DNA of 64,000 bases, taken from positions 28,696 to 92,695 of the forward strand of contig JBAYKW010000003.1 of assembly GCA_041664365.1 (NCBI GenBank). Reading direction: 5' to 3'. Source of the DNA: Patescibacteria group bacterium. Its GTDB lineage: Bacteria; Patescibacteriota; Patescibacteriia; UM-FILTER-42-10. A model generated the notes under the pieces. The model was not told the DNA's origin. It was given only the letters and a program-made list of their open reading frames with translations, and did not search any database. Positions 6,001 to 64,000 of this stretch are shown here, piece after piece (the stretch's first letter is position 1; each line of letters starts with the position of its first letter). Both the position numbers and the translations under genes were made by a program.

Positions 6001-6104
6001 GTTTTAAGATTTAAGTGAATATCTTTAACTTTAATCATAAATCCTTAATCTATAACAAACAGAAAAAATGGTATATACTGAAGGGGTATATTTATCATCA
6101 AAAT

Positions 6105-8782: not shown

Positions 8783-8790
8783 AAAATTGT

Positions 8791-9573: not shown

Positions 9574-9592
9574 GTTATTAATTAAAAATGGT

Positions 9593-19644: not shown

Positions 19645-22600
19645 ATGCCGAGCAACCAAAAAAATCCAAAACGCCATTTTAAAAAATCAATATTTGGTGT
19701 TTTTATTTTCGTTGCTTTTTTCGTGCAGCTTTTTTTATTAGCGCCAAAACCGGCGAACGCAATTTTTGGAGTTGGGGATGTTACATTTTCCACTGTTATT
19801 GGAGATATTCCGGCAAAGTTGTGGAACGCAGTAACCTCAGCTGTAAAAAAATCAGGAGATATTGCTTATAAAAATGCACTGAAAACATTTACCCAGCAAC
19901 TTGCTTATGATGCTGCTGTTAAAATTGCCAGCGGAGCGGCGGGCCAACAACCGTTATTTAATACTAAGCCGTTTAGTAAATCAATCACAGATGCTGCCAA
20001 TGCGGCGGTCGGTGATTATCTTGACCAGATAACTACAGCAGCTTGGGGTAAAAGTCTTTGCGACATAGACCCGAAACTGAAAATTTCAATCCAGGCATCA
20101 ATCAATGTTGATTTGGGGTACGCAGGACCGCCAAGGCAGGCAAAGTGTACACTTTCCTCAATCACGAGCAGGTTGGGTAAGAAGAGCCTGAATGATTTTT
20201 ATGAAGTGGATGCGAAACTGGGTTTTGCCATTAAAGGCGTGGATCCTGCCCAGCTTTCCCAAGCTCTACTCAAAGGATTCCCGGAAATGTTCGGCGAGGA
20301 CCAGGCGGAAATTTCCCAGTACCTTTCGGTCTATAGAGGGGCAATGACTGAAAAGGAAAAAGCGGAAAAAGCGGAAGAAGCAAAACAGGCGAAGGATTTT
20401 AATAATCTAGTTAGTGCGATTACCGGTGATACTAAAACACCGGCGGCACAGGTTGAGGCAGTGGCGGAAGTTGCATTAACGGAAACAACAACACCTGAAA
20501 AAGTAACAACCGGTTCTATAATTGCTGACATGATCGGTGTGTTTAGTAATACTTTGGTTAAGAAGTATATGGAATTTATCTTGGTTAAAGGTTTAAACCC
20601 GAATGCGGACAGCACCGGATCAGTTCAGGGTAAATTCGGCAGGACATCGGGCATCGCTGCGGCGGAAGCAAAATTTGCATCATTCAACCAGCCTTCACTT
20701 GGTGCCGGAGGATCCGTGGACATTTTAAATACACTATCGACCTGCCCGACGGATTTCGCCGAGCCGGAAAACTGCGCGATTGATCCTAGTTTCCGAACAG
20801 CGGTAGAACAGCAGCTTCGTTTGGAAGAAGCGATTGAATCAGGCTACATTAATGGTGACAAGCCTTTCGGTTATGGAGATGGTGGAGCCCAGTTGAATTA
20901 CCAGGAGGGTTATCCATACCGCAGTTTGGTCCTGCTTAGAAGGTATCGGGTGATCCCGGTAAGTTGGGAACTGGCTGCATCGTACGTCAGAGAATTCGGG
21001 GGAGGAACTAAAACCCTGAATGAATTAATCAGAGAGTACGACGATCCAGCATCACAGTACTATCAGTTAATTGATCCGGATTGGGTTTTGAAAGCACCGG
21101 CCACGATGTGTGTCAATAGCGGTTACAATGAAACGTTTCTTTTTGATGAATATATTGATGAAGACGGAATAAATGAGACGCCAAAAATCCGCCAAATCCA
21201 ACGAAACACATCATGCGTTGATGATCAGTCCTGTATTGTAGAAGACGGCAATGGTAACTGCCAGCAGTATGGCTACTGTACCAAAGAAGATCCGATTTGG
21301 CGGTTTAACGGTGAATCGTGCCCTGATTATTATAATACTTGTACAACCTATACCAACAGACAGGGTCAGCCCGCTTCATATCTGGCGAAGACATTGGACT
21401 TTAACGGCTGTTCTGCGGATAATGTCGGTTGTCAGTGGTATTGTTCGGAATATAATACTACCGATGAAAGATGGGAATGTTATTATAATGATGATGGCGC
21501 TGCCGGCACGGAGGACTATGGCTATTGGAATTATGATCCGAATTCTCCGGGCGGTGGAATTGCAGAGCCAGCCTTGGCCTCAAGCTGGTTATCGCATCTG
21601 AATGCCAATGCGGAGAGTTGTACTGCCGGAGCGGACGGATGTAGTGAATTTGTTAGGACCGACCATGGCTCCAACTTAATCAGCAATGCCAGTTTTGAAT
21701 ATTATACAGGCACCCCCGACGATGGTAATGCAGATATTTTCACTAATTCATGGTCCGCTGTAAACGGAGCAGTTACCGAAGCGGATACGATCACTTCGCT
21801 GGGTGTTTCCCCATATTCAGACGTAACGGTTATGAATCTGCATTCAGCTGCTGTGCCTGGACCTTATATAATCTATGGAATTGATGCCGGGTCACCTGTC
21901 AGAAACAGGATATTTACGTATTCTTTTTATGCAATGCGAGATCCGGATCTGATTAATCCTGCGTGTACAGATACCGCTCGATTAGAACTATTACAGGCGG
22001 TCGGCCCTGCGTTGGCCTCAACAACTATAGATAATCTGAATGATCAATGGCAGAGATATCAAGTCACATATGCACATCCTGATTCATTCAATCCTGCCGT
22101 TTCCTATTTACTATTAAACATTGTTCCTGACACCGGCTGTAATATAATTATAGACGCCGCCAAAATAGAAGAAGCGGAAAGTGCCGGCCAGTATGAAAAT
22201 TATGGAGCGATAAATAGAGTTTATTTAACCGGAGAGCGGGAAAGTTGTAATCCGGATGATGTCGGGTGCCAGAACTATACACCGCTTGCCGGTGGTTCCG
22301 TGATCCCTGGGCAGGTTAGACCACAAGATCAGTGTGATAGTGCAGATGTCGGTTGCAAAGCTTTTGAGGAGGTCAAACTAACCAACGTTGTACCGCGCCC
22401 GGATAATATTGAACGTTCCGGCATGTATTGTTATGGCGGGGCAAACCAGGGCAATGCGTGTTTAGTTGCCGGTGATTGTCCGGCAGGATACTGCCTCCCG
22501 GCTATATCATTTGTTCCGGACACAGGCGCGCAATGTTCCGCAGCCTATGTTGGTTGTGAAGAATTTACGAATTTGGATGAAGTTTCGGCCGGCGGAGAAG

Positions 22601-25600
22601 GAAAGGAATATTATTCTTTTCTGAAACAATGCGTTACGCCAGCCGATACGGACATTGCTTCATATTATGCCTGGGAAGGTGACGCGGTAGCCGGATACCA
22701 GTTAAGAGCATTCCGACTGAAACGCAGTGATGTTGGCGGTGCATTTCCGGCCCCTTGTACTCATTTGGAAGTCGGACCGACACTCCCGCTGGATTGTGAA
22801 GATTCATTAAACACTGTTGATGATTGTACTAGTGAGTACGGTATAAATCCTGATTGTACACAATTCTTTGATTCAAATTTAAATATATTTTATCGGTATA
22901 AAACGCAAACTATATCAGTAACAGAAGACTGCCACCCGGAGAGAAACAGTATAGACAACCTGACGTATTATGGATCGCCAAGCGAAAGCCGGTCATGTCC
23001 GGCACAATTTGCCGGGTGCAGAGAATACCTGGGAAATGCGGGATACAATTACCGACAGGTTAATTATGATGATTTTGAAGACGGTACCAATCAGGGTTGG
23101 AGTGCAGGTGTTGTAAGTCCTGAATCAGTTATGCTTAACGGTCATTCACTGAACATAGCGTCACCAAATCCAGTGAATAAGGAACCGCTTGATGAAACAC
23201 TGGAAAATAAAAAGACATATATGTTGAGTTTCTGGGCAAAAGGTACCAGCGTAGCCCCGACTATTCGGTTTAACCACGCATTAAATAATAATGGTTATTT
23301 TGCTGATGCGGATCCGGCAACATTCCCCGCTTCAGTAGTTTTGACTAGTGATTGGAATAAATATACACTTGGTCCGGTGAATATTGATACTAATGACTAC
23401 GTTGGTAATGTCGTGCCGGATGGTTTGGTTATTGAGGGCTTAGCCGGTGTTAATGACTATTTTGATAACATCGAACTGATTGAGACATCCAGCAGTCAAT
23501 ACCTGATCCGCGGGTCGTTTAGAACCTGTTATGGATCGGAAAACTGCGAGGCGTATTCTGATTGGGAAAATGTAACTCACAATCTAAAATCATTCACAAA
23601 ATTGTGTTCGGAAGACACGGTGGGATGTGAAGCACTAATTGATACACAGAATAACAGTAATCCGTTTACACAGGTATACGGCAGTGGAGTGCTTAGCGCC
23701 GAAACTATTCCGATTGATCAAGTGGTTACACTGATTAATGATCCGGATAAATATTGTGCTGCCGAGGATAAAGGGTGTAAAAAACTCGGTAAACCAATCA
23801 TTGATGCGAATAACAATCTTGTTTCTTATGAAGATACCTATTTAAAGGACAACCCGGAAGATTATGATGATATCTGGTGTGGTCAAACCGAGGTAGGTTG
23901 TGAGGAATACGGCTTTTCAGATAGCGGTGGTAAAACATTTTTCAAACAACCAAACGGCCGGACGTGTGAATACAAGCAACTACTGGGGACATATGAATTT
24001 AATTGGTATGTTGTCGGCACCGAAGAGGTCTGCGATCAGACACCAACTCCGCCTAATCCGGCGATTCCAGCATTTGTTTGTACGGAAGGAGCACTAGGCG
24101 GACCGCCGGCAGGGACAATTTGTGATCCGGAAAATCCAGTCGCCTGTACAGGATCAAGCACCTGCATACCGTGGGTCGGTTTGTGCGACTCGAAAGCTAA
24201 CGGATGCACGGCGTATAGCGATCCGATGGATCCGGTTGGCTGTCAGCCAAACTGCCCGTTTGAAAACGGAGCGTTTTATGATGAAAATTGCGTGGAGACG
24301 CCGGGCGGACTTCCGGGATGTGCGACATACTACAATATAAAATCAACAGTTGATTCAACCAGTTGTAACGGTGTGGTCAACGAAGAAAAGGGATGTAAGC
24401 TGTTTAGTGACACGCAACAATCTCTCAACTATTCAGCGGATTTAAGTCCGGATGGTATAAAAAATTATTGTGATCTTACTGATCCATCAACTTATGGAAA
24501 TGAATGCGATGTTGATGCTGATTGCGGAACCGGAATTTGTTTCCCGAATCCGGAATTTGGAGCGCCGGTATTGGGCAGAGACGGCACTTGCGTCGGCGGG
24601 ACGAACCCGGGTGATCCTTGCACTAATGCAGCGGATTGTCTTGATGCAGGTGTCTGTGATCCATATGCCATTACTGCCGAGAGTCCGTCGCTTGATTCCA
24701 ACACTGTATTGAAGGTGAAAAGAGACCGGGTTTGTGAAGAATGGCTATATTGTAAAACTTCATTTGAAGTGGACGACGAAACGGATACCGACGGTGACGG
24801 CAAAACAAAAGAAGATGTTTGTTTTGAAATCGGTCTGTGCGATGAGGCTGGGTCAAACGGTTCCTGTGCCAGCACGATTGATACGGCGCCGGTCAATGTA
24901 ACCGGCGATACCCCGGCGTATCCTCTGGATGAATTCCAGAACCTTTCCGGTTTTGTCAGCGCCGGTCTGCATTATGGCTGTCGAACCGACCATTCTGTGG
25001 CTTGCACGGTTGCCACCGAAGCTACTGCCTGCGCCGGCTATGGGGATGAATGCGATATTATTGAAGGATACTATCCTTATTCGGAGATGTATGAAGTAGG
25101 GTTGGGCGGAGCGGTAACCAAGGATTTGGTACGTTTTGGCAATTTTGAATCTGACGCATTATCCCAGTTTATGGTTTGTAGTTCAGATATGGGGAATAAA
25201 GATTCTTCTTGTATTATAAATGAACACTGTATACCAGATGAGGATTCGCCAACTGATCCTGATTGTCTTGATGTAAATGATGAACAAACATGGACAACTC
25301 TTTACCCGAATATTGGAATGGACAGTGCTATTTCAGTTGTTGAAGGAGATACGATCAAAGATGGAAATGCGGCACTCGATGAAAACAACTATCTGCTTTA
25401 TACGGCAGGATCACTGGGGGTGTGCGATAGTGACTCAACTAACGAAGGAACGCTATGTACCCTAGCCGGTACTGAATGTACTGGCGGGGGACTTTGTTCG
25501 TTCACTGGATTGGGTGTGAAGACCAGCTTGGGAACGAATATATTAAATAAAGCTGAATATATTGCCAGTCTTGATTTCCGATTTATCAATATGCCTGAAG

Positions 25601-28600
25601 CAGGGCAGGAACAAATTTCAATCTCTCTTGCACAAATTGATAGTTTCACCGGCAATATTGTTGGAGAAAATATTTTAGGCTATTTCGATGGTTCAACCGG
25701 CTGGACGGAGCAAATTCTGAAACCGGTGGTGGTTACGGGTATACCGGATGAAAATGCGGAAACTTTCCTTTTGATTAGAAGTATGAGTGGTAATGTTCCC
25801 TTTGCTATCGATAATGTTTCTATGAAGCCGGCACTGACAGTGAAAGCATCTGAATCAGCCGGAATTCGTGGTGATTATTACACTCTTATCTATGATAATT
25901 CAGGTATTCCCGGTCTGTCATATAGTTATTCAGGTACAACTACATATACTGGAACTGATCTTCAAATCAATGAATATGAATATTGTGTCCATGGTGATTA
26001 TGCATATCTACCACCACTTTGTACAGTACATAATGTACCTACAGGGCAAAGATGGTCTACTCCAAATGAGACTACGACATGGAATGGCGGAATCCTAATT
26101 GACTCCAGCGGTTTCCATACGGTATTTGTGAATATTAACGACGGTTTCAGGCTCTATGTTGATGATATGGTTACACCAATATTTGACCAATATGGCGGTG
26201 GTGTTGCAACTCAAGGGTATATGTTTAGCGGATATTTTACCGCCGGGTGGCATCCTATAAAACTCGAGTGGATTAATAATGGAGATGACGGCGGTGTGCA
26301 GCTAGGGAGTGTGGCCGGTACTTATACAAACAATGATTGTAATGGAACCATTCTTCCTAATTTCTGCCAGCGCTATTTTGACGGTGTTGATCAAGGACCA
26401 ATCGGAGCGGATATTGCTGATGGTGCTCGCGATTTCCCGATACCTTTGAATTATATAATCGGTCCAAGCCATCTGACAACACAACTTGATAGGGTATTCG
26501 GCACATATTTAGGAACGCATGTCAGTGAGTATCTGGATTACGATGCCGCGAGCATGGGCCCGCACTTGATTGACGTAACTGGTGCAGATGAGAAAATAGC
26601 GGTGCGCTGGACCGGAAAACTGCTAGTGGAAACAGCCGGTAATCATCAGTTCCAACTGCAACACGACGACGGAGTTAGGTTCTTTATAGATGACCTCGAT
26701 ACGCCAATCCCAGCTTCAAATGTGTGGAGTGATGGGAGTGGTACGGTTACATTTACTGTCAATGGACTTGATACCGGATCGCATCCAATAAAAATAGAAT
26801 ATTACCAAAATGAAGGAAATTCCAGTTTAAGTTTCTTATGGCAACCACCGGGAGCACCGGGGATGACAGTCGTTCCGACAACAAATTTATCAACGACAGA
26901 TGGTGATCAACAATATATCAAACGCTCCTGCCGTGCTTATCCTAGGGAGGATTCGGAAGTCTGCCAATATACCAACAGCGACCTGGTGCAGTTCAACGGC
27001 TGGCAGGGGTACTGTATTGAGACAGACCCGACCAACCCGAATAAATGTATCACCTGGTGGCCGGTAGATGCGATCTCCGGCGAGTCCAGTGTATTCGGTA
27101 CAGTGGAACCGGCCGGTTATCAAGGCAGGAGACCTCTTTATATGTGCGTGGAGTCAACTGGTAATTATAATGAAACAAGTACGTTTAATGACTTAATGGT
27201 TAATGGCGCGCAGTCATCTTGTCCGGATGATGAAGAGGGAGACATTAACATGCCGGTTTCAGAAATGCTCGGTCAGTTTTATGGGTATCGTCATCCGATA
27301 AAAACAAATTGGGCAAATATTCAGGCTGGTGCGGATAGTGATTGTGATGGTGGAGAAGATACAGCCTGTGGCATGGTAGAGAATCATGCTCCTTGTAGAG
27401 TAATTGGTGGAGGAACAAGCGCGAATCTCTATGGCTTTTGCGGCTGTACTGGTGGGGCAACAATGAGTTATTTAGTTGTCGATGCTTTAGAACAGGATAA
27501 ATTCTATGAATGGGAAATAGACCGAATTGAATGGACGGCACAAAGATCAAGTCATGGCGATTGGCCACAGGGTCAAACAACTTGGATCGCAAATAAAGCA
27601 AATGATTGGACAGTGCAGGGAGATGAAAGTAACTGGTTCAAAGATAAAGACGCATCGATTGAATGCGGTTCTCAAAACTGTTTCAATTTCAAAGTAAATT
27701 TTGACGGTAATCAATTGTTAGACAGTTTCAGAGTGCATATGGTTGATGGAAGTCAAGCTTGGGGTGGTATGTGGGTAACAGGTACGATATATTTGCGTGA
27801 TGTTTGTAAGGAAGTCGCTAAAGTTGTCAGTTCAACCGACGACAGTGCATGGGCGCAAAGAACAGCATCTGCCAGCTCATATATCATTCAGGACCTTTTA
27901 TATTCTTACAGTTCTGACGCTGCACCGTTTGGCGCAATGGTTGCCGGAGCAGGTGCTGATCCGGGTGAATCGTGGGGCAAAGATTCTTCTGGTCTACTAC
28001 CGGTATTACTTGAAGGACTTGATAGTTCACCATCGCCTGCAGTAAACAACACCAGGCTGGGGCAGTCGTACAGCTGTAGTGCAAGATGTAATAATAGCCC
28101 CACTACTTATTGTGAAGTAAACGCGGATTGTCCTCTAGGTGGTTTATGCGATCGTACCAGTTGTGTGCCAAAAGTTTGTTTTGGTGGAGCTAACGATTCA
28201 GTACATCGCAGTGTACAATATTCCTGTTCTTCGGATGCGGATTGTCAGGGAACAGAAGATGATCGCGCAGTCTGTGTAGGAGTTGGTTTATGTAGTGGTG
28301 ATCAGACGATTGAATGTACGACTGATACAGATTGCGGAACAGCAGGTTCATGTGTTGGCGCTGATGCGAAGCTGAAGGGTGATGGGCCAGTAAATACAGG
28401 AAATGCATGGGCTCTAGAAAGGTTACAAAGAATATTTGCCAATGTCTATGGATCATGGCGCTGGGATGATGCAACTGGTTCTTATGTTGATGTCCCTGAT
28501 TTTGGCGGTTCGTGGAGACAGGTATGGAATGATAAATTCGATAATATGGTTTTATGTAATTTAAACGGAACAGGACCGCGCCCAATTTGGCCAGGACCAG

Positions 28601-29031
28601 AAACTGACTACTGCGCGATTTTACCGAAGGTTAGTAATATACTGGTCAACGGAACAACCGGCGATGTGGTGATGAATGGTGGAGGTTCAGTTACACTGTC
28701 GTTTACCAGTTTTGTTGATGCTGAGCAGGAGGAGTTGAAGAATATAATTGTGGACTGGGGTGATGGTTCAACGCCAACCTCTATTGTGTGGAATGGCGCG
28801 CCGAAATCTGATCCGAGTCAACCGCATCTATTCTCACATACCTATGATGATGTTGTTGGTCCAGGGGCGGGGGAATACCAGATTGAAATCATGCTGAAAG
28901 ACAATTGGGGTTTCTGCAACAATGCTGTTTTGCCTCCGGGTCCAAATTATAGACAATGTGATATTAATGGATTATTTCCTTACCATGAGTATACAGAATA
29001 TGACGGTATAATCCGTGTCTACCCAAGCTAA
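19645..29031 (+). CDS. Giant (3128 aa) secreted Cys-rich surface protein with two PA14 domains
   Basis: Signal/anchor FGVFIFVAFFVQLFLLAPKPANA. More than 150 Cys in CxxC/CxxxxC arrays. PA14-like segments at about nt 25861-26290 (GIRGDYY..RLYVDDMV..WHPIKLEWINNGDDG) and about 26560-26860 (VRWTGKLL..HQFQLQHDDGVRFFIDD..HPIKIEYYQNEG..LWQPPG). Confidence 0.7.
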   Translation: MPSNQKNPKRHFKKSIFGVFIFVAFFVQLFLLAPKPANAIFGVGDVTFSTVIGDIPAKLWNAVTSAVKKSGDIAYKNALKTFTQQLAYDAAVKIASGAAGQQPLFNTKPFSKSITDAANAAVGDYLDQITTAAWGKSLCDIDPKLKISIQASINVDLGYAGPPRQAKCTLSSITSRLGKKSLNDFYEVDAKLGFAIKGVDPAQLSQALLKGFPEMFGEDQAEISQYLSVYRGAMTEKEKAEKAEEAKQAKDFNNLVSAITGDTKTPAAQVEAVAEVALTETTTPEKVTTGSIIADMIGVFSNTLVKKYMEFILVKGLNPNADSTGSVQGKFGRTSGIAAAEAKFASFNQPSLGAGGSVDILNTLSTCPTDFAEPENCAIDPSFRTAVEQQLRLEEAIESGYINGDKPFGYGDGGAQLNYQEGYPYRSLVLLRRYRVIPVSWELAASYVREFGGGTKTLNELIREYDDPASQYYQLIDPDWVLKAPATMCVNSGYNETFLFDEYIDEDGINETPKIRQIQRNTSCVDDQSCIVEDGNGNCQQYGYCTKEDPIWRFNGESCPDYYNTCTTYTNRQGQPASYLAKTLDFNGCSADNVGCQWYCSEYNTTDERWECYYNDDGAAGTEDYGYWNYDPNSPGGGIAEPALASSWLSHLNANAESCTAGADGCSEFVRTDHGSNLISNASFEYYTGTPDDGNADIFTNSWSAVNGAVTEADTITSLGVSPYSDVTVMNLHSAAVPGPYIIYGIDAGSPVRNRIFTYSFYAMRDPDLINPACTDTARLELLQAVGPALASTTIDNLNDQWQRYQVTYAHPDSFNPAVSYLLLNIVPDTGCNIIIDAAKIEEAESAGQYENYGAINRVYLTGERESCNPDDVGCQNYTPLAGGSVIPGQVRPQDQCDSADVGCKAFEEVKLTNVVPRPDNIERSGMYCYGGANQGNACLVAGDCPAGYCLPAISFVPDTGAQCSAAYVGCEEFTNLDEVSAGGEGKEYYSFLKQCVTPADTDIASYYAWEGDAVAGYQLRAFRLKRSDVGGAFPAPCTHLEVGPTLPLDCEDSLNTVDDCTSEYGINPDCTQFFDSNLNIFYRYKTQTISVTEDCHPERNSIDNLTYYGSPSESRSCPAQFAGCREYLGNAGYNYRQVNYDDFEDGTNQGWSAGVVSPESVMLNGHSLNIASPNPVNKEPLDETLENKKTYMLSFWAKGTSVAPTIRFNHALNNNGYFADADPATFPASVVLTSDWNKYTLGPVNIDTNDYVGNVVPDGLVIEGLAGVNDYFDNIELIETSSSQYLIRGSFRTCYGSENCEAYSDWENVTHNLKSFTKLCSEDTVGCEALIDTQNNSNPFTQVYGSGVLSAETIPIDQVVTLINDPDKYCAAEDKGCKKLGKPIIDANNNLVSYEDTYLKDNPEDYDDIWCGQTEVGCEEYGFSDSGGKTFFKQPNGRTCEYKQLLGTYEFNWYVVGTEEVCDQTPTPPNPAIPAFVCTEGALGGPPAGTICDPENPVACTGSSTCIPWVGLCDSKANGCTAYSDPMDPVGCQPNCPFENGAFYDENCVETPGGLPGCATYYNIKSTVDSTSCNGVVNEEKGCKLFSDTQQSLNYSADLSPDGIKNYCDLTDPSTYGNECDVDADCGTGICFPNPEFGAPVLGRDGTCVGGTNPGDPCTNAADCLDAGVCDPYAITAESPSLDSNTVLKVKRDRVCEEWLYCKTSFEVDDETDTDGDGKTKEDVCFEIGLCDEAGSNGSCASTIDTAPVNVTGDTPAYPLDEFQNLSGFVSAGLHYGCRTDHSVACTVATEATACAGYGDECDIIEGYYPYSEMYEVGLGGAVTKDLVRFGNFESDALSQFMVCSSDMGNKDSSCIINEHCIPDEDSPTDPDCLDVNDEQTWTTLYPNIGMDSAISVVEGDTIKDGNAALDENNYLLYTAGSLGVCDSDSTNEGTLCTLAGTECTGGGLCSFTGLGVKTSLGTNILNKAEYIASLDFRFINMPEAGQEQISISLAQIDSFTGNIVGENILGYFDGSTGWTEQILKPVVVTGIPDENAETFLLIRSMSGNVPFAIDNVSMKPALTVKASESAGIRGDYYTLIYDNSGIPGLSYSYSGTTTYTGTDLQINEYEYCVHGDYAYLPPLCTVHNVPTGQRWSTPNETTTWNGGILIDSSGFHTVFVNINDGFRLYVDDMVTPIFDQYGGGVATQGYMFSGYFTAGWHPIKLEWINNGDDGGVQLGSVAGTYTNNDCNGTILPNFCQRYFDGVDQGPIGADIADGARDFPIPLNYIIGPSHLTTQLDRVFGTYLGTHVSEYLDYDAASMGPHLIDVTGADEKIAVRWTGKLLVETAGNHQFQLQHDDGVRFFIDDLDTPIPASNVWSDGSGTVTFTVNGLDTGSHPIKIEYYQNEGNSSLSFLWQPPGAPGMTVVPTTNLSTTDGDQQYIKRSCRAYPREDSEVCQYTNSDLVQFNGWQGYCIETDPTNPNKCITWWPVDAISGESSVFGTVEPAGYQGRRPLYMCVESTGNYNETSTFNDLMVNGAQSSCPDDEEGDINMPVSEMLGQFYGYRHPIKTNWANIQAGADSDCDGGEDTACGMVENHAPCRVIGGGTSANLYGFCGCTGGATMSYLVVDALEQDKFYEWEIDRIEWTAQRSSHGDWPQGQTTWIANKANDWTVQGDESNWFKDKDASIECGSQNCFNFKVNFDGNQLLDSFRVHMVDGSQAWGGMWVTGTIYLRDVCKEVAKVVSSTDDSAWAQRTASASSYIIQDLLYSYSSDAAPFGAMVAGAGADPGESWGKDSSGLLPVLLEGLDSSPSPAVNNTRLGQSYSCSARCNNSPTTYCEVNADCPLGGLCDRTSCVPKVCFGGANDSVHRSVQYSCSSDADCQGTEDDRAVCVGVGLCSGDQTIECTTDTDCGTAGSCVGADAKLKGDGPVNTGNAWALERLQRIFANVYGSWRWDDATGSYVDVPDFGGSWRQVWNDKFDNMVLCNLNGTGPRPIWPGPETDYCAILPKVSNILVNGTTGDVVMNGGGSVTLSFTSFVDAEQEELKNIIVDWGDGSTPTSIVWNGAPKSDPSQPHLFSHTYDDVVGPGAGEYQIEIMLKDNWGFCNNAVLPPGPNYRQCDINGLFPYHEYTEYDGIIRVYPS

Positions 29032-32988: not shown

Positions 32989-34350
32989 ATGACTGATAAA
33001 ATAAATACAAATAATATACCGGATTTAGAAGATTTAAAATTACTTGAAAAATACAAGGAATATATTGATTATGTTGAATTTAACAACGAGATAGCACTGG
33101 CCAAAGATATCTCCGACATGCTGCTTGCTCTGTTCGGGCATACCCCGAATTTCAATGTAAAAAATCCGGATTTATTTAAGGAATATCAGTCTATTTTAAT
33201 CCGCGCGCGCTGGGTCGCTCTTCCACTTCTGAAAGACCCGGATGTATTGGAGATGTTTGAAAAATATTACATGGAAGGGATGGCAATGTCGGAATTGGTG
33301 GATATCCAGGAAAAACTGAAAATTAATTTATTGAATCACTTATTACCGGAGGATCGGGATAAGCTGAAACTGGCAATCAGAAAAGCTTTGGAAAGAAATG
33401 TCCAGTTAATAACGAAAGACAAGCTTCAGGCGGATGAGGAAAAAAGAGATCCGACAATTGCAAATTGGATTTTGGATTTTACTTCAGAATTGGGGACCAA
33501 TATGTTTGACCGGGTAAAGGAGAACCAATATTTTGTAAATGGAAATAATACAAAAAAACTGTCAGAAACGGAAAAAACAAATCTGAGAGTACTACTTAAT
33601 ATCTATCGCCGTTGTGGCAGATCGTCTTTGACTCTTGAGGGAAATGAAGAACCAATTCCAGTTGATACAGAAAACAGAGTCGGTACCATCCGCGAAGGCC
33701 AGTTTGAAGAGATAAAAATGAAGGATTGGATAGCATTGGTGGAAAAGATGAAAAGTATCCGTAACATGAATTATAATGTTGATGATGCGCCGGCGGAAAT
33801 GACCGAAACGGAGAAAGAATTACAGCGGGAAAAACTGATTATGGAATTTCTCGGATCAGAAGGGGAGAGGATTATGATCCATAACGAGGAGAACAGCCTC
33901 GAGGAGACTAGTAATACAGGATTACAGGCGCTTGTTTCGATACTGATGGATGCGGTAGATCGGAAAGATAAATACAAAGCAATAGCTGCATTGCGCGTAA
34001 TCGCGGATAAGGGTAATTTGACGGAAGAATTTAAACTGAATGAAAGAGTCAGCGCATTGGCTAAAGAAATATTGCAAAAGCAATACAAACCGGAAATAAC
34101 CGCTGATTTTCAGCGTAATGGTTTCACGGCGCCCTATTTAAGTATATTTCTACAGCATATATTCCGGGAGAAAATGAATCTGGATGATGCGGAGTCCGCC
34201 CGATTTGGCGTACAGCTGGAAAATATTTTGGTGGAAAAGGGGCAGACATCCGTACAGGGGATGGTCTATGGTGATTTGATGAGCGGAAAATATATGTGGC
34301 AAGCAATAAAAGATGAAGGAGTTAAACTGTCAATTCCGGATCAGATCTAG
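32989..34350 (+). CDS. Hypothetical protein, no recognisable motifs
   Basis: Long ORF in the same orientation, tightly spaced with its neighbours. Confidence 0.45.
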   Translation: MTDKINTNNIPDLEDLKLLEKYKEYIDYVEFNNEIALAKDISDMLLALFGHTPNFNVKNPDLFKEYQSILIRARWVALPLLKDPDVLEMFEKYYMEGMAMSELVDIQEKLKINLLNHLLPEDRDKLKLAIRKALERNVQLITKDKLQADEEKRDPTIANWILDFTSELGTNMFDRVKENQYFVNGNNTKKLSETEKTNLRVLLNIYRRCGRSSLTLEGNEEPIPVDTENRVGTIREGQFEEIKMKDWIALVEKMKSIRNMNYNVDDAPAEMTETEKELQREKLIMEFLGSEGERIMIHNEENSLEETSNTGLQALVSILMDAVDRKDKYKAIAALRVIADKGNLTEEFKLNERVSALAKEILQKQYKPEITADFQRNGFTAPYLSIFLQHIFREKMNLDDAESARFGVQLENILVEKGQTSVQGMVYGDLMSGKYMWQAIKDEGVKLSIPDQI

Positions 34351-47420: not shown

Positions 47421-47909
47421 ATGAAAAATAATAAAGGATTTACTCTGTTAGAGTTGTTGGTTGTCGTGGCAATCATCGGTCTTATTTCTTCCATTGCTTT
47501 CGTAGCAATGCAAAACGCCCGCGCAGAGGCGCGCGATGCAAAAAGATTGGCTGATGTTCATGCAATAAGGAATGCACTGGAGCTTTATTATCACGATAAT
47601 GGATCTTATCCTGATCCATGGTGTATTGGTTTGACATCTGTCGCAGGCTGTAATTCATTTGTTGAGCCAAATAGCTGGATACCATCATTGATACCAAAGT
47701 ATATGCAGACACTACCTAATGATCCGTTGAACACAACAAATGATGAAACTAATGAACATTATTTATATTTTTATACACGATGGGCAGTAGATGAAAATGC
47801 ACCTCAACAATACTACCTCATATACAGAAGAGAAACGAAAGGTCAGGTAAGAGAATGCCCTGTTTTATGGGGTGGTAATTGGTCTTCGTTATGTGGAGGA
47901 ATAATTTAA
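47421..47909 (+). CDS. Type IV pilin/pseudopilin (prepilin-type N-terminal methylation motif)
   Basis: MKNNKGFTLLELLVVVAIIGLISSIAFVA. Confidence 0.8.
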   Translation: MKNNKGFTLLELLVVVAIIGLISSIAFVAMQNARAEARDAKRLADVHAIRNALELYYHDNGSYPDPWCIGLTSVAGCNSFVEPNSWIPSLIPKYMQTLPNDPLNTTNDETNEHYLYFYTRWAVDENAPQQYYLIYRRETKGQVRECPVLWGGNWSSLCGGII

Positions 47910-49624: not shown

Positions 49625-49767
49625 TAATATATTCATTCTATCGAGGTGTCCTGTACCACTAAATGGTACAGGACAACCCCGCACCCAAGGTGGTGCGGGG
49701 TAGACGCGACAAGGGGAGTTGTTAAAAAGATTTAAGGTTAATACATTTAATATAATTTATTTAAAAT

Positions 49768-50676: not shown

Positions 50677-50706
50677 TAATTTTATCAATCATTAAATAAA
50701 AATTTT

Positions 50707-52197: not shown

Positions 52198-52201
52198 GAC
52201 A

Positions 52202-53593: not shown

Positions 53594-53597
53594 TTTT

Positions 53598-55103: not shown

Positions 55104-55117
55104 TTTAGGAAATTGAA

Positions 55118-57933: not shown

Positions 57934-59682
57934 TTATTCTAAAGGTAAGATAAAGAAAAATGTACTACCCTTATCTTCAGTTGATTCAACGCTAACCAGT
58001 CCGCCGTGCGCTTCAATGATTCCTTTCGCAATAACCAGACCTAAACCGGTTCCTTTTGCCTGGGTCTTTTTTTGCCCTTCCGCCTGCTCAAATTTATTAA
58101 ACAACTTTTTAATCTGGTCTTTTCGAATACCAGAGCCATTGTCTGTTACTGCACAAATTATGACATCTTTTTCTCGTTTTTGCAAAACCTCAGATGAATT
58201 TGAAATAAACCATTTGATTCCCGCCTGCTTCGCTTTGCTTTCTATGTCCTCATCTTTTTTCAGAAGCAATGTTTGAACTTTCACGACTCCTTTTTCTTCC
58301 GTGAATTTAATGGCATTGGAAAGTAAATTGTTTAGAACTTGAATTATCTCTTTTTCATCAAATGGAACCTGTTCAATATCCGGTCCCCAGTAAGAATTTA
58401 AAACAATATTTTTTTCACTTGCTAAACTTTGGAAAAAATTGATTCTTTCTTCAATAACTCTTTTTAAATCTCCCTTTGACTTAGTGACAATAAATTTACC
58501 CGCTTCCAGCTTGGCAACATCCAACAAATCGTTAACCAGTTCTAAAATGTTAGTTGTACTGCCGTGGATCATTTTAGCGGATTGTAAAAACTGGTCTTTC
58601 GGCATTTTTTTATCCTGCAGCATTTCGGAAATCAACCGAATGCCGTTTAAAGGAGACCGTAAATCGTGCACCATCATGTTGGTAAAGTCTTCTTTGACTT
58701 TTTCCAGTTCCTTATCATGGGTTATGTCGTGCAGAATAATTACGGCGCCGAGTGTCTCACTGTTTTTATCTTTAACCGGTGAAAACAAAATCCGGATATA
58801 TCGGTGTTGGATGTATGTTTCTTCGATTACTTCCTGCCGATTCAATTTAATACATTCTTCCAGTTTTGTCCTGAAGTCTACTTTTCCTTCAAAAGCTTCG
58901 ATTATGTCAAATATGGATGTTTCTTTATTCTCGATACCTAGAAGATCCTTAACCTTGGGATTTGTGACATAAACCCTGTTGTCTTTATCAATCATTAGGA
59001 CTCCGTCAGCCATACTGACTACCATGGCGTTAAGCTTGCTTTGCTCCGAGTCTAATACATCCTGCAGACGTGTTACGGCATTGGATGCTTGCGCGGTTAT
59101 CTTATACAGAATAGTCATTTCATCTTCCTTATATAGTCCGGTTTTGGTGCTTGATACATTTAATATTCCCACTACTTTGTTGCCAACAGTTAATGGGATA
59201 TTAAAAAATGAGCTCAATGGCTCATTATTATCATCATCCAAGATGGTACCGGCAATTACTTCTTCGATTGTTCTATTCTGATAATTCTGATCTGTCAGGA
59301 CTGATAGTGCTGCTACCATTTTTCCCTTTACATCTTCCACGAATTTAGGACTGACGCTCTCTTCAACTTCACACTTGAAAAGCAATTCCTTCTTTTGAGT
59401 ATCTTCCAAAATGTAAGAGGTAGTGGAATAATCAATCAGTTCTTTTAACGATCCGGTGATAATATCGGCGATTCTCTGGGTGTTTAAAGAATACCCTGCC
59501 CTTTCCCCGATTTCTTTAAGTATGGAAAGTTCATACATGCGCCGGTTATTTTCTGATTCTCTTTTTTCACTTTCAGCTTTTAATGTGCCTCTTAATTTTC
59601 TGATATAAACGCAAAAACTGACTATAACCGCAATGATTACAATCGAAAAAACAAATATCACTGATACATTCGCTTGATCCAT
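57934..59682 (-). CDS. Membrane-anchored sensor histidine kinase: TM, GAF/PAS-like region, HisKA, HATPase_c
   Basis: H-box MMVHDLRSPLNGI; N, G1 and G2 boxes (LLSNAIKFT, VTDNGSGI, GTGLGLVIAKG). Confidence 0.85.
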   Translation of the reverse strand: MDQANVSVIFVFSIVIIAVIVSFCVYIRKLRGTLKAESEKRESENNRRMYELSILKEIGERAGYSLNTQRIADIITGSLKELIDYSTTSYILEDTQKKELLFKCEVEESVSPKFVEDVKGKMVAALSVLTDQNYQNRTIEEVIAGTILDDDNNEPLSSFFNIPLTVGNKVVGILNVSSTKTGLYKEDEMTILYKITAQASNAVTRLQDVLDSEQSKLNAMVVSMADGVLMIDKDNRVYVTNPKVKDLLGIENKETSIFDIIEAFEGKVDFRTKLEECIKLNRQEVIEETYIQHRYIRILFSPVKDKNSETLGAVIILHDITHDKELEKVKEDFTNMMVHDLRSPLNGIRLISEMLQDKKMPKDQFLQSAKMIHGSTTNILELVNDLLDVAKLEAGKFIVTKSKGDLKRVIEERINFFQSLASEKNIVLNSYWGPDIEQVPFDEKEIIQVLNNLLSNAIKFTEEKGVVKVQTLLLKKDEDIESKAKQAGIKWFISNSSEVLQKREKDVIICAVTDNGSGIRKDQIKKLFNKFEQAEGQKKTQAKGTGLGLVIAKGIIEAHGGLVSVESTEDKGSTFFFILPLE

Positions 59683-59697: not shown

Positions 59698-59973
59698 TTA
59701 TTGTTTATTTTCGATTACAACAGAAGGATATTTTGCCAGTAATGGTTCCATTGTCTTTTTAACAATTAATCCGGACAGCGCGACATATTCATCAATTAAT
59801 CTTTGTAATGCCACCTGTGGATCGCCGTTGATTTCAGTTACTTCACCGTCAGCGCTGATTGCCAATTCTGTAACATTTTTTGCTTTCATGATCGCAATAT
59901 CCGGACCTAAGATGACAATTTGCTTTTTTATCATCTCGCTCATTATATTTTTATATTCTTCTCCGTTTGCCAT
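59698..59973 (-). CDS. Small hypothetical protein of 91 aa, upstream of the histidine kinase in the same operon-like run
   Basis: ORF only; 15-nt gap to the kinase start. Confidence 0.4.
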   Translation of the reverse strand: MANGEEYKNIMSEMIKKQIVILGPDIAIMKAKNVTELAISADGEVTEINGDPQVALQRLIDEYVALSGLIVKKTMEPLLAKYPSVVIENKQ

Positions 59974-59997: not shown

Positions 59998-60324
59998 TTA
60001 TCCTTGGGTAATTTTTTTGGCTTCTTCACCGGCAGATTTTAGCGCCTTCAATGTCCAAACAAATGTTACAAACCAGCCAGCAAAAACTGGCAGTACCCAA
60101 TAAACTCCTTTGGCATTTTCAAACATATATGCGGTACTGACTATCCCCAGGGAATACATCTCTACCAACATAGTATAAACCAAAACTTTTGTTATTTTAC
60201 CGACCAGCGATCCTTTAACTAACTGGTAAACGCTTCTGCCTTTGACAAAAATATAGATTGAGCCACCAATCAATATTGGCCAACCAATGAATAATATTAC
60301 ATTTCTCATAAGTTCTAGTGACAT
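59998..60324 (-). CDS. Small 3-TM membrane protein, tandem paralog A
   Basis: About 60% identical to the adjacent ORF (..VGKITK.LVY.MLVEMYSLGIVST.Y...). Confidence 0.5.
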   Translation of the reverse strand: MSLELMRNVILFIGWPILIGGSIYIFVKGRSVYQLVKGSLVGKITKVLVYTMLVEMYSLGIVSTAYMFENAKGVYWVLPVFAGWFVTFVWTLKALKSAGEEAKKITQG

Positions 60325-60335: not shown

Positions 60336-60662
60336 TTAATTATTTGTTATTTTTTTAGTCTCCTCGCTAGATATTTTTATTGTCTTAATACTCCACATAA
60401 AAACCGCTCCCCAAATAATAAACACCGGCAGAACAACATAAACACCTTGAGCGTTATCAACGAGGTACACAGTACTGACAATTCCCAGAGAATACATCTC
60501 AACGAGCATCGAATAAACCAGTGCCTTGGTGATTTTACCTACCAGAGAGTCTTTGATTACGGAATATACTTGCTTGCCCACCTTAAAGATGTAAATACTG
60601 AAAAAAAACAATACTGGCCATCCAACCGCCAGTATAATGTTTCGAACAGTATCTAAATTCAT
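60336..60662 (-). CDS. Small 3-TM membrane protein, tandem paralog B
   Basis: Paralog of 59998-60324. Confidence 0.5.
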   Translation of the reverse strand: MNLDTVRNIILAVGWPVLFFFSIYIFKVGKQVYSVIKDSLVGKITKALVYSMLVEMYSLGIVSTVYLVDNAQGVYVVLPVFIIWGAVFMWSIKTIKISSEETKKITNN

Positions 60663-60891
60663 TGAATATTACGTTATTTGTGTGAATACCATCTTATTGT
60701 ACCATAAGTTAGCAAAAAAATCAAGTGGAATCAACTATTTATTATATGTACTGATTGTATGGTTATTGAGTATTTGGCAATCTAATTTATCCGCAACACT
60801 TCGAGAAATTATTCAAGCTAGAATATGAGTTACTATTCACACGGTATGTTGTTAATTATTATCACTTATGCTATAATATAAAAGATTTTTC

Positions 60892-61839
60892 ATGGCAAAA
60901 TTTACCAAAACTTTTTCACAATTAAATAGAAAAAGTGTAGCAGAAGCGGGAGGAAAGGGCGCACAACTGGGTGAGATGACAAAGGCAAAATTGCCAGTTC
61001 CACCAGGGTTTGTGGTACTTTCCGGCACATTTGAGCGTTTTTTGGAAGAAACGGACCTGGATGTAGAGATAGACGCATTGTTAAAAAAGGTAAATTTGAG
61101 TGATATTAACAGTGTGGACCGGGTTTCCAATGCAATCCGGGAATTAATCCACGAATTAGTTGTCCCGGATGATATCGCAAAAGAGATCCAGACCGCTTTT
61201 AATAAATTGAAAACCAAATATGTTGCTGTCCGTTCTTCCGCGACAGCCGAGGATTCATCCGTTGCATCCTGGGCGGGCGAACTGGAAACATATTTGTTTA
61301 TTACTAAAGCAAATTTGGTTGAAACAGTGCGTAAATGTTGGTCATCGCTGTTTACCCCCCGCGCGATTTTTTACCGCTTTGAGAAAAAACTGCACAAGAC
61401 CAAAGTAAGTGTCGGCGTCGTAGTCCAAAAGATGATTAATTCGGAAATATCCGGCGTGACATTTACAGCCCACCCGGTTACCAACGATCTGGATCAGATG
61501 GTGATTGAGGCGGGGTTCGGCCAGGGTGAATCAATCGTCTCAGGACAGATTACGCCGGATACCTATGTGGTAGATAAGAAAAATAAAATCATTTTAGATA
61601 TTAATATCTCTGAGCAAAAGAAAATGATTGTTCAGAATGGTAGTAAGGGAACAAAAACAGTCACTGTTGTAAAATCAATGCAGGAAAAGCAGAAACTCAC
61701 AGGCAAACAAATCATTCAACTTGCCGAAGTCTGCAAAAGAATAGAAAAACATTATAACCATCCCCAAGACATAGAATGGGCGATGGAAAAAAATAAAATT
61801 TATATTACGCAATCAAGACCAATAACAACACTGAAATAA
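60892..61839 (+). CDS. Standalone PEP-synthase/PPDK N-terminal ATP-grasp (PPDK_N, PEP/pyruvate-binding) domain protein with no His or TIM domains
   Basis: AGGKGAQLGEM..PVPPGFVV, VAVRSSATAEDSSVASWAGELETYL, DIEWAMEKNKIYITQSRPIT. The ORF stops where the swivel domain begins in PpsA and in rifampin phosphotransferase. Confidence 0.7.
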   Translation: MAKFTKTFSQLNRKSVAEAGGKGAQLGEMTKAKLPVPPGFVVLSGTFERFLEETDLDVEIDALLKKVNLSDINSVDRVSNAIRELIHELVVPDDIAKEIQTAFNKLKTKYVAVRSSATAEDSSVASWAGELETYLFITKANLVETVRKCWSSLFTPRAIFYRFEKKLHKTKVSVGVVVQKMINSEISGVTFTAHPVTNDLDQMVIEAGFGQGESIVSGQITPDTYVVDKKNKIILDINISEQKKMIVQNGSKGTKTVTVVKSMQEKQKLTGKQIIQLAEVCKRIEKHYNHPQDIEWAMEKNKIYITQSRPITTLK

Positions 61840-61840: not shown

Positions 61841-63181
61841 ATGGAGGATCAAAAAAACAAAATCAACACAGCAAAATCGGTGAAAGTAAATGTTGCTTCC
61901 GGAAAGAAAGACGATGAAGAAAAGCAGATTTTAAAAGGTGCCAGAATTCTAATTAAAGACCAAAAAGGGCAGTACAGCTATGTAAAAGGAGCCAAATTAA
62001 TGGGTGAGGACGAGGTTGTTGTTGCTTCTGCGCCGGTGGTTTCCGCGCCAACAAAGAGTAAAATAGATCCATCCATTATCAAAAAAGCGGTTGCGCAGTT
62101 GGCTAATCAAAAGATGATAACGCCATCCGTTAAACCGGCCCCCCTACCAAGAAAACAGGACGAAGTAAGTACGGTAACAGCTTCTCAGCTAAAACCGGTT
62201 TTTCAAGATCGGATGGTTCCGAATAAAGGAGTTAACGCAAGTTTTTATTTTGATGTAGAGGATGAGGAGGAAGTGAAAAAAATGCATAATGAGGAAATTT
62301 CCTCATCGGCCAGAACTATTGATTACGGCACAGTTGTTAAAGAGATTGCAAATCAGGTCGGATTAAATTTTACTGATGAATCTTTGCAAAAAAGATTTGA
62401 AAGCCTAATAACATCCCGTCTGAGAGATATTCGAACTTCCGTCCAATTAAGAGAGCTTTTGGTCCGTTCAAAAAAAGTCGGCGGTTTAGAACTTGAACCT
62501 GAGATTGCGGAATCGATCGTGAAAATAACCGCAGAGAAGGCGCTGAGTTTTCATAATGAAACCGAGATCAAAAAAATTGAATACCGGCAGATGATGAAGT
62601 TGCAGGAAGCGGAAAAAGAGAGAGAGCAGCAGGAAAGGATGAGAAAAGCAGTAGCAAATGAACAGATTAAGAAAGCGGTTCTCAATCTGCATTTGCAGAA
62701 GAAAAATGAATTAGAAAATGCGGTCAAACCGGAACCACAGCCGGTCATTAACAAGCCGATTATTGATAGACGGATTCCAATTATCCCAAAGATGCAAAGA
62801 CCGATGCCGGTTTTTGACAGCAGGCCAAAAATTGTGGATATCAAGACGCCGCCAAGATTAATGGGTCCGATAGAGGAAATAAGAAGCTTGAATTTGGTGG
62901 ATTTTAGAAGGCTCGGCGGGAACCCCCAGCAGTCAATTGAAAAAATAAAAGAGAAAGTTGATCTGTTGGAAGAGGAATCATATACCAAGAAAGCGGAAGC
63001 GATCCAAGCCTGGAAGAAATCGGAGATTTATCAGATATATCTAGACATCGGTAATGAAGGTATGAATAAAGGAAAATCCGTCCAGGATGTGATAACAAGC
63101 AGGAAAATGGACGGCCGTTCCTATCTGACCGATGAAGAGTTTGAAGCGGTAGGGGATCTAAATAGACAGTTAAGATTTTAA
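61841..63181 (+). CDS. Hypothetical K/E-rich protein
   Basis: ORF directly abutting upstream and downstream genes. Confidence 0.4.
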   Translation: MEDQKNKINTAKSVKVNVASGKKDDEEKQILKGARILIKDQKGQYSYVKGAKLMGEDEVVVASAPVVSAPTKSKIDPSIIKKAVAQLANQKMITPSVKPAPLPRKQDEVSTVTASQLKPVFQDRMVPNKGVNASFYFDVEDEEEVKKMHNEEISSSARTIDYGTVVKEIANQVGLNFTDESLQKRFESLITSRLRDIRTSVQLRELLVRSKKVGGLELEPEIAESIVKITAEKALSFHNETEIKKIEYRQMMKLQEAEKEREQQERMRKAVANEQIKKAVLNLHLQKKNELENAVKPEPQPVINKPIIDRRIPIIPKMQRPMPVFDSRPKIVDIKTPPRLMGPIEEIRSLNLVDFRRLGGNPQQSIEKIKEKVDLLEEESYTKKAEAIQAWKKSEIYQIYLDIGNEGMNKGKSVQDVITSRKMDGRSYLTDEEFEAVGDLNRQLRF

Positions 63182-63184: not shown

Positions 63185-63622
63185 ATGCGGTTTGTAGTTC
63201 CCCAATTTATTGAAGTAGAAGATAAAATTATCGGACCGATTTCCGTCCGGCAATTTATAATTTTTCTAGTGGCATTCGGAATCATTTTCATTGAATACCA
63301 AGTATTAGGATTTATAACATTTATTTTTGCTGCCCTGTTTATGTTCGGGTTGGCCGGCATTGTTGCATTCGCTAAAATTAACGGTCAGCCTTTCCATTAT
63401 TTTTTTCTTAATATCCTGTATACAATCAGGAAGCCGAAAATTAAGATTTGGAGCAAAGAAGTGGTCAGCGGAGCAAGTAAAATAAGCCATAAAAATTCCA
63501 TTAAAACTGCCGTGGTTGTAGCTCCAAAAATGGCTGTTACAAATTCAAAACTGACTCGTTTGTCACTGGTAGTCGACACGGGAGGGGCGTTTAAAGAGGA
63601 CGAAGATGATGTCAATTTTTAA
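63185..63622 (+). CDS. PrgI/VirB3-like small membrane protein of Gram-positive-type T4SS
   Basis: N-terminus FVVPQFIEVEDKIIGPISVRQFIIFLVAFG followed by two TM helices. Confidence 0.5.
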   Translation: MRFVVPQFIEVEDKIIGPISVRQFIIFLVAFGIIFIEYQVLGFITFIFAALFMFGLAGIVAFAKINGQPFHYFFLNILYTIRKPKIKIWSKEVVSGASKISHKNSIKTAVVVAPKMAVTNSKLTRLSLVVDTGGAFKEDEDDVNF

Positions 63623-63639
63623 GTCTAATCAAAACAAAT

Positions 63640-64000
63640 ATGCATTCTAAACAGCTAGCAGGACAAAAACCAAAAGCTTCCACCCAGAGCCATCTTGATA
63701 TTCTTGAAATCAAAGATAACGTGGTTGCTTTGAAAGACGGGACATTAAGGGCGATAATTTTAGTATCTTCAATCAACTTTGCATTAAAATCAGAAGACGA
63801 GCAGATCGCTGTTATTCAGGGTTATACGCAGTTTTTGAATTCATTCGATTTCTCTATTCAGATAGTAATCCAGTCCAGAAGATTAAACATTGAAGAATAT
63901 CTGGATAGACTTAAGAAAGTTGAAAAGGAACAAACCAACGAACTGCTCAGAATGCAAACAGCAGAATACCGCCAATATATTAATGAGCTGGTGGAGATAG
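63640..64000 (+). CDS. VirB4-family T4SS ATPase (TraE/PrgJ/TcpF-like), N-terminal 120 aa only. The 3' end lies outside the window.
   Basis: Hand translation gives LDILEIKDNVVALKDGTLRAIILVSSINFALKSEDEQIAVIQGYTQFLNSFDFSIQIVIQSRRLNIEEYL, the characteristic VirB4 N-terminal pattern. The frame is open to the window end. Confidence 0.55.
   Translation, partial: MHSKQLAGQKPKASTQSHLDILEIKDNVVALKDGTLRAIILVSSINFALKSEDEQIAVIQGYTQFLNSFDFSIQIVIQSRRLNIEEYLDRLKKVEKEQTNELLRMQTAEYRQYINELVEI

Follow-up and report, generated by a model that had tools for sequence, protein, structure and literature searches.

What kind of machine is encoded at the end of a 64,000-nucleotide stretch of contig JBAYKW010000003.1 (positions 28,696 to 92,695 of the forward strand, assembly GCA_041664365.1; hereafter the window), from a bacterium of the Patescibacteria group, and what does it do for the cell? 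The last genes of the window resemble components of a type IV secretion system (T4SS). Only a small number of envelope machines, the T4SS among them, have been shown to be essential to a cultivated patescibacterium living as an epibiont. An earlier interpretation of the window, made from its sequence and referred to here as the original prediction, had placed a Gram-positive-type T4SS at this edge, opening with a PrgI/VirB3-like gene and continuing into a VirB4 ATPase. The type of system is upheld by the PrgI gene and by the homology of the last reading frame to TrsD and to the N-terminal region of VirB4, and it is the identity of that last gene and the extent of the locus that have to be revised.

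It is highly probable that the window ends within the inner-membrane and ATPase core of a chromosomal T4SS of the Patescibacteria type, derived from monoderm machinery of the mating-pair formation (MPF) class FATA, in which VirB4 is split and which most likely acts as a non-conjugative interface with a host. Such a system has already been described for Patescibacteria in the literature of 2023-2025, and nothing in this locus is categorically new. Its interest lies in the correction of an annotation error, the TrsD-like gene being easily miscalled VirB4, in model coordinates which show that the TrsD-like protein and VirB4 together form a true split VirB4, in evidence that the cluster can break into two distant pieces in one lineage, and in two conserved, unannotated cytoplasmic proteins of 446 and 453 amino acids, flagged as candidate accessory subunits.

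The edge reading frame and its relation to VirB4

The last reading frame of the window runs from an ATG at 63640 without a stop through 63999 (120 codons) and holds both peptides, KDGTLRAIILVSSINFALKSEDEQ and FLNSFDFSIQIVIQSRR, from which an open frame with a VirB4-like N-terminus had been predicted. That resemblance is confirmed by matches of the fragment to the VirB4 model of Mycoplasma integrative and conjugative elements (ICEs; NF045975, VirB4_plasma, E 5.4e-9, model positions 97-213 of 894), to the CD1110-type VirB4 model (NF045971, E 1.4e-6, positions 12-102 of 752) and to the TrsD/TraD model NF041427 (E 1.6e-6, 28.1 bits against a cut-off of 200), together with a trace of TIGR00929 (E 0.011, 14 bits against a cut-off of 643). 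The fragment has 560 database homologues, the best at E = 4e-45, and all 120 of those listed carry a precomputed match to PF26593 (TraC-like). The identity originally proposed for this frame was the N-terminus of a single full-length VirB4/TraE ATPase, with the Walker A and B motifs just past the end of the window. In favor of that proposal is the homology of the fragment to the N-terminal region of the full-length models NF045975 and NF045971, and it is general knowledge that in most Gram-positive T4SSs this N-terminal domain is part of the same polypeptide as the rest of VirB4. In solved T4SS structures the domain forms the membrane-proximal end of VirB4, beside VirB3.

The related loci tell a different story. 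They comprise 80 genome loci, all from metagenome-assembled genomes of Patescibacteria, some of which are labelled otherwise in their records, and one Logan contig; synteny counts out of 82 refer to the window plus these 81 sequences, and counts out of 77 to the loci in which both a TrsD-like gene and a VirB4 reading frame are visible. In every one of the 77 the orthologue of the edge frame is a separate open reading frame (ORF) that stops at 219-277 amino acids (median 226) without a P-loop and without any case of fusion, and another separate ORF of 571-670 amino acids lies 3' of it, which is VirB4 and carries the Walker motifs. The assumed VirB4 start, the first ATG, lies -38 to +190 nucleotides from the stop of the TrsD-like gene, and all three relative frames occur. 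It is on this ORF analysis that the standalone status of the TrsD-like protein rests, and not on the lengths of the homologues listed for the 120-residue fragment; none of these exceeds 210 amino acids, but that ceiling is 1.75 times the query length (699 for a query of 400) and is probably due to a length filter. The two loci closest to the window conform to the pattern, namely L003 (JBAYGW010000002.1; 94% identity over the edge fragment, 75-86% for neighboring proteins, and DNA colinear with the window at 76-80% identity) and L004 (93% over the edge fragment). A TrsD-like protein is moreover reported as the commonest T4SS component of Patescibacteria in the survey by Quinonero-Coronel et al. 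(2025, PMC12102498). A single full-length VirB4 at the window edge is therefore extremely improbable, and the frame is instead, on sequence homology, a TrsD-like standalone protein corresponding to the first ~140 residues of VirB4.

The closest relative shows what is to be expected beyond the edge. In L003 the PrgI protein (145 amino acids) and the TrsD-like protein (237 amino acids) are followed after a gap of 12 nucleotides by a VirB4 of 631 amino acids with a Walker A motif (SGAGKSY) and a Walker B motif (VLVIDEAW), which matches the crystal structure of the VirB4 C-terminal domain (4AG5) at E 5e-49. This protein passes the cut-off of NF045971 (369 bits against 325) over model positions 155-729 of 752, and the TrsD-like protein covers positions 12-136 of the same model; on NF045975 the two occupy positions 98-256 (TrsD-like) and 263-892 (VirB4), and on TIGR00929 positions 18-141 and 238-725. 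As the two proteins cover complementary parts of the VirB4 models, they are together a split VirB4. A profile of 78 TrsD-like proteins aligned by hhalign with a profile of 69 VirB4s gave a probability of 0.1%, and since the TrsD-like domain goes undetected inside the 631-residue VirB4 family, the arrangement is a split and not a duplication. The notion that the TrsD-like protein arose as a second copy of a domain that VirB4 itself retains was rejected on these two grounds, the hhalign result and the complementary model coordinates. VirB4 in these systems is thus read from sequence as two polypeptides, a TrsD-like N-terminal domain and an ATPase of ~630 amino acids that carries the P-loop. By orthology the TrsD-like protein of the window is expected to have a full length of ~237 amino acids and the gene for the ~630-residue VirB4 to start a few nucleotides past its stop, beyond the window.

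The full-length VirB4 ATPases with which these proteins can be compared, including TrwK of R388 (PDB 7O41 and 8RTB), CD1110 of Clostridioides and Mbov_0397 of a Mycoplasma ICE, are single polypeptides, in contrast to the two found here. The kinship of the TrsD-like protein with VirB4 is visible only by fold comparison and with NCBIfam profiles: a full-length orthologue scores 42.3 bits on NF045975, 26 on NF045971 and 19.4 on TIGR00929, below the cut-off in each case, and PDB sequence searches with the protein and with its profile returned nothing significant. Among the plasmid systems, the pGO1/pSK41 and pIP501-type members of MPF-FATA (TrsC-TrsD-TrsE) share the order of a VirB3-like protein, a standalone TrsD-type protein and VirB4, and it is to their TrsD that the NF041427 match points; at 28 bits against 200, however, the window fragment falls outside that subfamily and is related to it only remotely. 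The plasmid systems also differ in being plasmid-borne, in having a relaxase and a coupling protein, and in lacking pilins.

The conserved core and its detached upstream part

Directly 5' of the TrsD-like gene in all 82 sequences lies the gene for PrgI, followed beyond the TrsD-like gene by VirB4 in 77. The 145-residue protein of the window begins MRFVVPQFIEVEDKIIGPISVRQFI, carries the predicted motif VPQFIEVEDKIIGPISVRQFI at residues 5-25 and passes the gathering threshold of PF12666 (31.1 bits against 27; residues 10-85 on profile positions 8-87 of 91), and its two hydrophobic helices, at residues ~22-36 and ~41-63 as called by hydropathy only, agree with the two TM helices that had been anticipated and would form a membrane hairpin. 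Its size class, its N-terminal motif with the two-helix hairpin behind it and its position 5' of the VirB4 module are those of PrgI of pCF10 and of the VirB3 family (PF12666). It differs from these in an extra C-terminal tail of ~60 residues beyond the Pfam domain (residues ~86-145, window 63440-63619), which carries the cytoplasmic motif SRL.ELSL.VDTGG.Y. This motif, along with VPQFIDVEDKIIGPITVRQF and NGQPFH, is kept in 79 aligned orthologues, and the conserved tail motif is a possible point of contact with the TrsD-like protein or VirB4. The Pfam score and this conservation of PrgI, and the many homologues of the edge fragment, mark the two frames as genuine genes and not as reading frames open by chance.

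The locus had been thought to begin with PrgI and to lie directly downstream of an ATP-grasp gene, and neither statement survives comparison with the relatives. Between the ATP-grasp gene and PrgI lies a gene for a protein of 446 amino acids (Table 1) whose homologue sits directly 5' of PrgI in 78 of the 82 sequences, which moves the start of the cluster to 61841 or earlier. The core order over the 82 sequences is the 446-residue gene (78), PrgI (82), the TrsD-like gene (82), VirB4 (77) and a gene for a 208-residue protein with a single transmembrane (TM) segment (52). In the window the stop of the 446-residue gene lies 3 nucleotides before the PrgI start, and the gaps along the run from the ATP-grasp gene PPDK_N through the 446-residue gene and PrgI to the TrsD-like gene, which starts 17 nucleotides past the PrgI stop, are 1, 3 and 17 nucleotides. 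No plus-strand terminator-like site was found between 60892 and 64000. A promoter-like site (TTGTTA-17-TATAAT with TG) stands ahead of this run, and promoter-like sites are rarer in the region than in its shuffles.

Table 1. Features of the window that belong to, or neighbor, the T4SS cluster, with the evidence for each.
Feature	Coordinates	Strand	Evidence
Giant surface protein, 3128 amino acids, N-terminal TM/signal segment, PA14 domain	19645..29031	+	PF07691, E 2.6e-15
VirB6/TrbL_3-like polytopic membrane protein, 1310 amino acids	29044..32976	+	TM profile, homologues, synteny
Soluble protein, 453 amino acids, no family	32989..34350	+	synteny
Promoter-like site ahead of the PPDK_N run	60849..60877	+	weak, consensus-level only
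ATP-grasp gene PPDK_N	60892-61839	+	Pfam
Cytoplasmic helical protein, 446 amino acids, first gene of the conserved core	61841..63181	+	synteny, AlphaFold
PrgI/VirB3-like small membrane protein, 145 amino acids, ATG start	63185..63622	+	Pfam PF12666, hydropathy, synteny
TrsD-like protein, first 120 codons, cut by the window end	63640..64000	+	NCBIfam matches, ORF analysis of 77 loci

The 446-residue protein, which is 100% identical to NCBI WCW66_03180, belongs to a family with 2694 cluster representatives (at 50% identity) at E <= 1e-3. It has no TM segment and no match in Pfam or NCBIfam. AlphaFold models it as two confident helical domains with disordered linkers, for which Foldseek found no matching fold in the PDB. 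The 453-residue protein encoded further upstream likewise matches no Pfam or NCBIfam family. Neither gene is among the T4SS components named in the accessible part of the survey of Patescibacteria (PMC12102498). One tentative suggestion, which we regard as doubtful, is that the 446-residue and possibly the 453-residue protein are unrecognized, Patescibacteria-specific cytoplasmic subunits of the T4SS, one possible role being a receptor or docking platform that would replace a VirD4-type coupling protein. Bearing on this suggestion is a 446-residue family that is large, without a model and without a known fold, and that adjoins PrgI in 78 of 82 sequences with near-zero spacing.

Further 3', a variable subset of the relatives encodes a VirB2-like pilin, a beta-propeller protein with an N-terminal TM segment, a DsbA-like oxidoreductase, RadA and RecG. 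The L003 pilin matches PF18895 below threshold (E 5e-5, 23.7 bits against a cut-off of 26.6), and also, weakly and below threshold, the pilin-like family NF045849 of Mycoplasma ICEs; PF18895 is listed for the corresponding gene of a further close relative, L002. The 208-residue single-TM protein was considered as a VirB8/PrgL-like component and has no informative family match; VirB8-like matches are almost confined to the class ABY1 according to PMC12102498.

These gene contents agree with what has been described for the phylum. Quinonero-Coronel et al. (2025, PMC12102498) define a Patescibacteria-specific VirB4 clade akin to MPF-FATA, accompanied by TrsD, PrgI/VirB3, VirB6 and VirB2-like pilins (PF18895), with relaxases almost never nearby. 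The window contributes PrgI, the TrsD-like gene and a VirB6-like gene to this repertoire, and L002 and L003 add VirB4 and the pilin. The likeness extends to the experimentally studied cluster of Ca. Southlakia epibionticum (SEML1_0006-0019; Wang et al., 2023, PMC10633639): the known systems too are chromosomal and have no relaxase or coupling protein near them. One difference is that S. epibionticum has an array of six pilin genes, against a single pilin-like gene in L002 and in L003. In comparison with R388-type VirB4 systems, the outer-membrane core proteins VirB7, VirB9 and VirB10 are absent here, as expected for a monoderm.

The VirB6-like gene lies apart from this core in the window. The 1310-residue protein has ~7 hydrophobic helices within residues 1-350 and then a charged tail of ~950 residues. 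Three of its homologues, P0137 (E 5e-15), P0139 and P0141, carry precomputed matches to PF19590 (TrbL_3), and P0126, 39% identical to it, matches TrbL below threshold (E 8.7e-4). In a distant member of the phylum, L083 (ENA ERZ27250602 k141_75270), a TrbL_3 gene stands 4 kb 5' of PrgI, a TraC-like gene and VirB4. Of 46 relatives whose upstream flank reaches 7 kb or more, 38 have a homologue of the N-terminal domain of the 1310-residue protein on the same strand, 3.7-9.8 kb 5' of the TrsD-like gene, and 17 have a homologue of the 453-residue protein, found by tblastn, between the VirB6-like gene and the 446-residue gene. At least 14 relatives have homologues of the C-terminal third of the giant 3128-residue protein directly 5' of the VirB6-like gene. 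Both of the links that had been drawn from the edge of the window to this distant region, one to the 29-kb gene and the other to the giant surface protein, are borne out by these comparisons. The giant protein, which is tied to the T4SS by synteny only, is a candidate for its adhesin. As reconstructed from gene order, the ancestral arrangement is the giant protein, the VirB6-like protein, the 453-residue protein, the 446-residue protein, PrgI, the TrsD-like protein, VirB4 and the downstream genes.

The window has its VirB6-like gene 34.6 kb from the TrsD-like gene, with ~27.5 kb of unrelated genes (34.4-61.8 kb) between the two halves, and its closest relatives L002, L003, L006, L022, L024 and L046 have no VirB6-like gene within 10 kb. 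Given the distance of 4-10 kb in 38 of 46 relatives, the cluster has therefore been split by ~27.5 kb in this lineage, and the separation of the VirB6-like gene and its partner from the core distinguishes this lineage from the chromosomal T4SSs described for Patescibacteria. It could be argued that a cluster interrupted by unrelated genes, with VirB4 in two pieces, is a decaying remnant, the split and the gap alike being marks of erosion. Of all the readings considered this is the least credible: every ORF is intact, the TrsD-like fragment keeps invariant motifs and 55-94% identity in dozens of species, and the split is universal and ancient, not a lineage-specific frameshift. PMC12102498 adds that the same split exists in functional staphylococcal plasmids as TrsD and TrsE, and, citing Wang et al. 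(2023), that the homologues of TrsD, PrgI, VirB4 and VirB6 are essential in S. epibionticum.

In the distant Patescibacteria L083 and L086/L087 a block consisting of an M23/LysM peptidase, KsgA and the TrbL_3 gene is conserved beside the T4SS or beside dnaA/dnaN. The window retains an M23 peptidase (11214-12452, minus strand) and KsgA (17829-18701) 5' of its VirB6-like gene, and this block fits the origin-proximal context reported in PMC12102498.

Conjugation, DNA uptake or an interface with the host

Homology of the machinery to conjugation systems of monoderm bacteria raises the possibility that these genes belong to a mobile element, an ICE or an integrated plasmid, that transfers DNA. The 631-residue VirB4 of L003 scores above the cut-off of the CD1110 model for conjugal transfer, and the pilin resembles, weakly, that of Mycoplasma ICEs. 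Against this, no family of relaxases, VirD4/TcpA-type coupling proteins (T4CPs) or integrases is represented among the window ORFs of at least 150 amino acids, the scans leaving shorter ORFs and the DNA downstream of the window outside their scope and a distant T4CP gene elsewhere in the genome being possible; nor do the gene tables of L002 and L083 or the ORFs of L003 contain these families. In PMC12102498 just 15 genomes are given as having a relaxase close to virB4. The cluster is surrounded by genes of housekeeping function (KsgA, LeuRS, PNPase, RadA, RecG) and has the same order and context in ~80 species of Patescibacteria, which argues for vertical inheritance and for a chromosomal system. 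As neither relaxase nor coupling protein accompanies it and its chromosomal setting is conserved, the system is in all likelihood non-conjugative, and a mobile conjugative element at this locus is very unlikely.

A second alternative is that the apparatus works inward, as a competence system for DNA uptake comparable to ComB of Helicobacter or to the archaeal Ced system, feeding recombination by RadA and RecG. It is suggested by radA and recG directly 3' of the cluster in L003 and by the presence of recG in the fetched flanks of 29 of the 82 sequences and of radA in 21; in the class ABY1, according to PMC12102498, comF, recG and radA co-localize with the T4SS, a context that L003 shares in its radA and recG. 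VirB4 also has a weak match to the DNA-import ATPase CedB (E 1.4e-12), far under the cut-off. However, the adjacency of radA and recG may be plain synteny, and none of the components identified in the cluster binds DNA. In S. epibionticum, moreover, competence relies on ComEC and type IV pili, and deletion of comEC abolishes transformation while viability is kept, whereas the T4SS is essential (PMC12857230; PMC10633639). An uptake apparatus for DNA thus appears unlikely, if less so than a conjugative element.

There remains the host. In Ca. Southlakia epibionticum, transposon sequencing showed that epibiotic growth requires the T4SS cluster, which has no recognizable coupling or relaxase proteins and has been considered to act in protein export or in some other role (Wang et al., 2023, PMC10633639); its essentiality is also stated in a report of 2025, where a pilus conduit for exchange with the host is speculated upon (PMC12857230). 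The system of the window most likely works at the contact between the cell and a host bacterium, through protein export or the uptake of host molecules, as proposed for Saccharibacteria.

In the T4SS of R388, VirB3 is in contact with the N-terminal domain of VirB4. From the R388 structures 7O41 and 8RTB, which contain VirB3, VirB4, VirB6 and VirB8, we infer an assembly in which the hairpin of PrgI would anchor the TrsD-like domain at the membrane, and in which this pair would dock the VirB4 ATPase ring under the VirB6-like channel, encoded 34.6 kb upstream in this genome. Hydrolysis of ATP would then drive the extraction of pilin and the assembly of a VirB2-like pilus, the passage of substrate, or both. 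The abutting or overlapping TrsD-like stop and virB4 start in many loci would fit co-translation and stoichiometric assembly of the two parts of VirB4.

Several points weigh against the reading of this locus as the core of such a T4SS. The NCBIfam scores of the edge fragment are far under the whole-protein cut-offs, at 34.3 against 590 bits for NF045975, 26.9 against 325 for NF045971 and 28.1 against 200 for NF041427, and a local copy of Pfam gave no match of the fragment to PF26593 or to any other family. The window holds 120 codons of the TrsD-like gene, its stop, VirB4 and the downstream genes being deduced from relatives. The 1310-residue protein has no direct match to TrbL (PF04610) or TrbL_3 (PF19590) at E <= 1, and none in NCBIfam, its VirB6-like label coming from homologues and synteny. 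Finally, the data on essentiality come from another class, Saccharimonadia, and for this lineage the substrate and the transport direction are proposals.

Other genes in the window

The ATP-grasp gene upstream of the core has its own set of possible partners. Five tandem paralogues (544, 496, 463, 501 and 463 amino acids; window 47990-56509) each end in the mobile 'swivel' domain of PEP-utilizing enzymes (PF00391; PEP, phosphoenolpyruvate), and their N-terminal 390-470 residues match no family. The standalone PPDK_N gene lies 4 kb 3' of them, and L003 has a similar gene of 502 amino acids. Together the swivel paralogues and PPDK_N look like a split and multiplied phosphotransfer system resembling PEP synthase.

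Between these two elements, on the minus strand, are two tandem genes for paralogous membrane proteins of 108 amino acids (59998-60324 and 60336-60662) without a significant family match and, 3' of them, a 91-residue ORF (59698-59973) and a GAF-PAS histidine kinase (57934-59682). Two adjacent paralogues of 849 amino acids (40548-43097 and 43204-45753) combine Laminin_G_3 with GHL15, a putative glycosyl hydrolase domain, and are followed 3' by an FG-GAP/fn3 protein (45754-47409) and a type IV pilin-like gene (47421-47909; N_methyl, T2SSG). Nearer the start of the window, a 450-residue protein (1372-2724) has a guanylate kinase domain in residues 5-186 only, the C-terminal ~260 residues matching no family, and three consecutive genes (636, 260 and 243 amino acids; 6872-10324), 3' of a PsbP_2-like protein (6015-6857), encode proteins with a single N-terminal hydrophobic segment each and no Pfam match. 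In the leucyl-tRNA synthetase (1064 amino acids; 12834-16028) an alpha/beta-hydrolase domain (Ser_hydrolase, PF06821) is inserted at residues 503-677, where it separates the catalytic part from the part that binds the anticodon.

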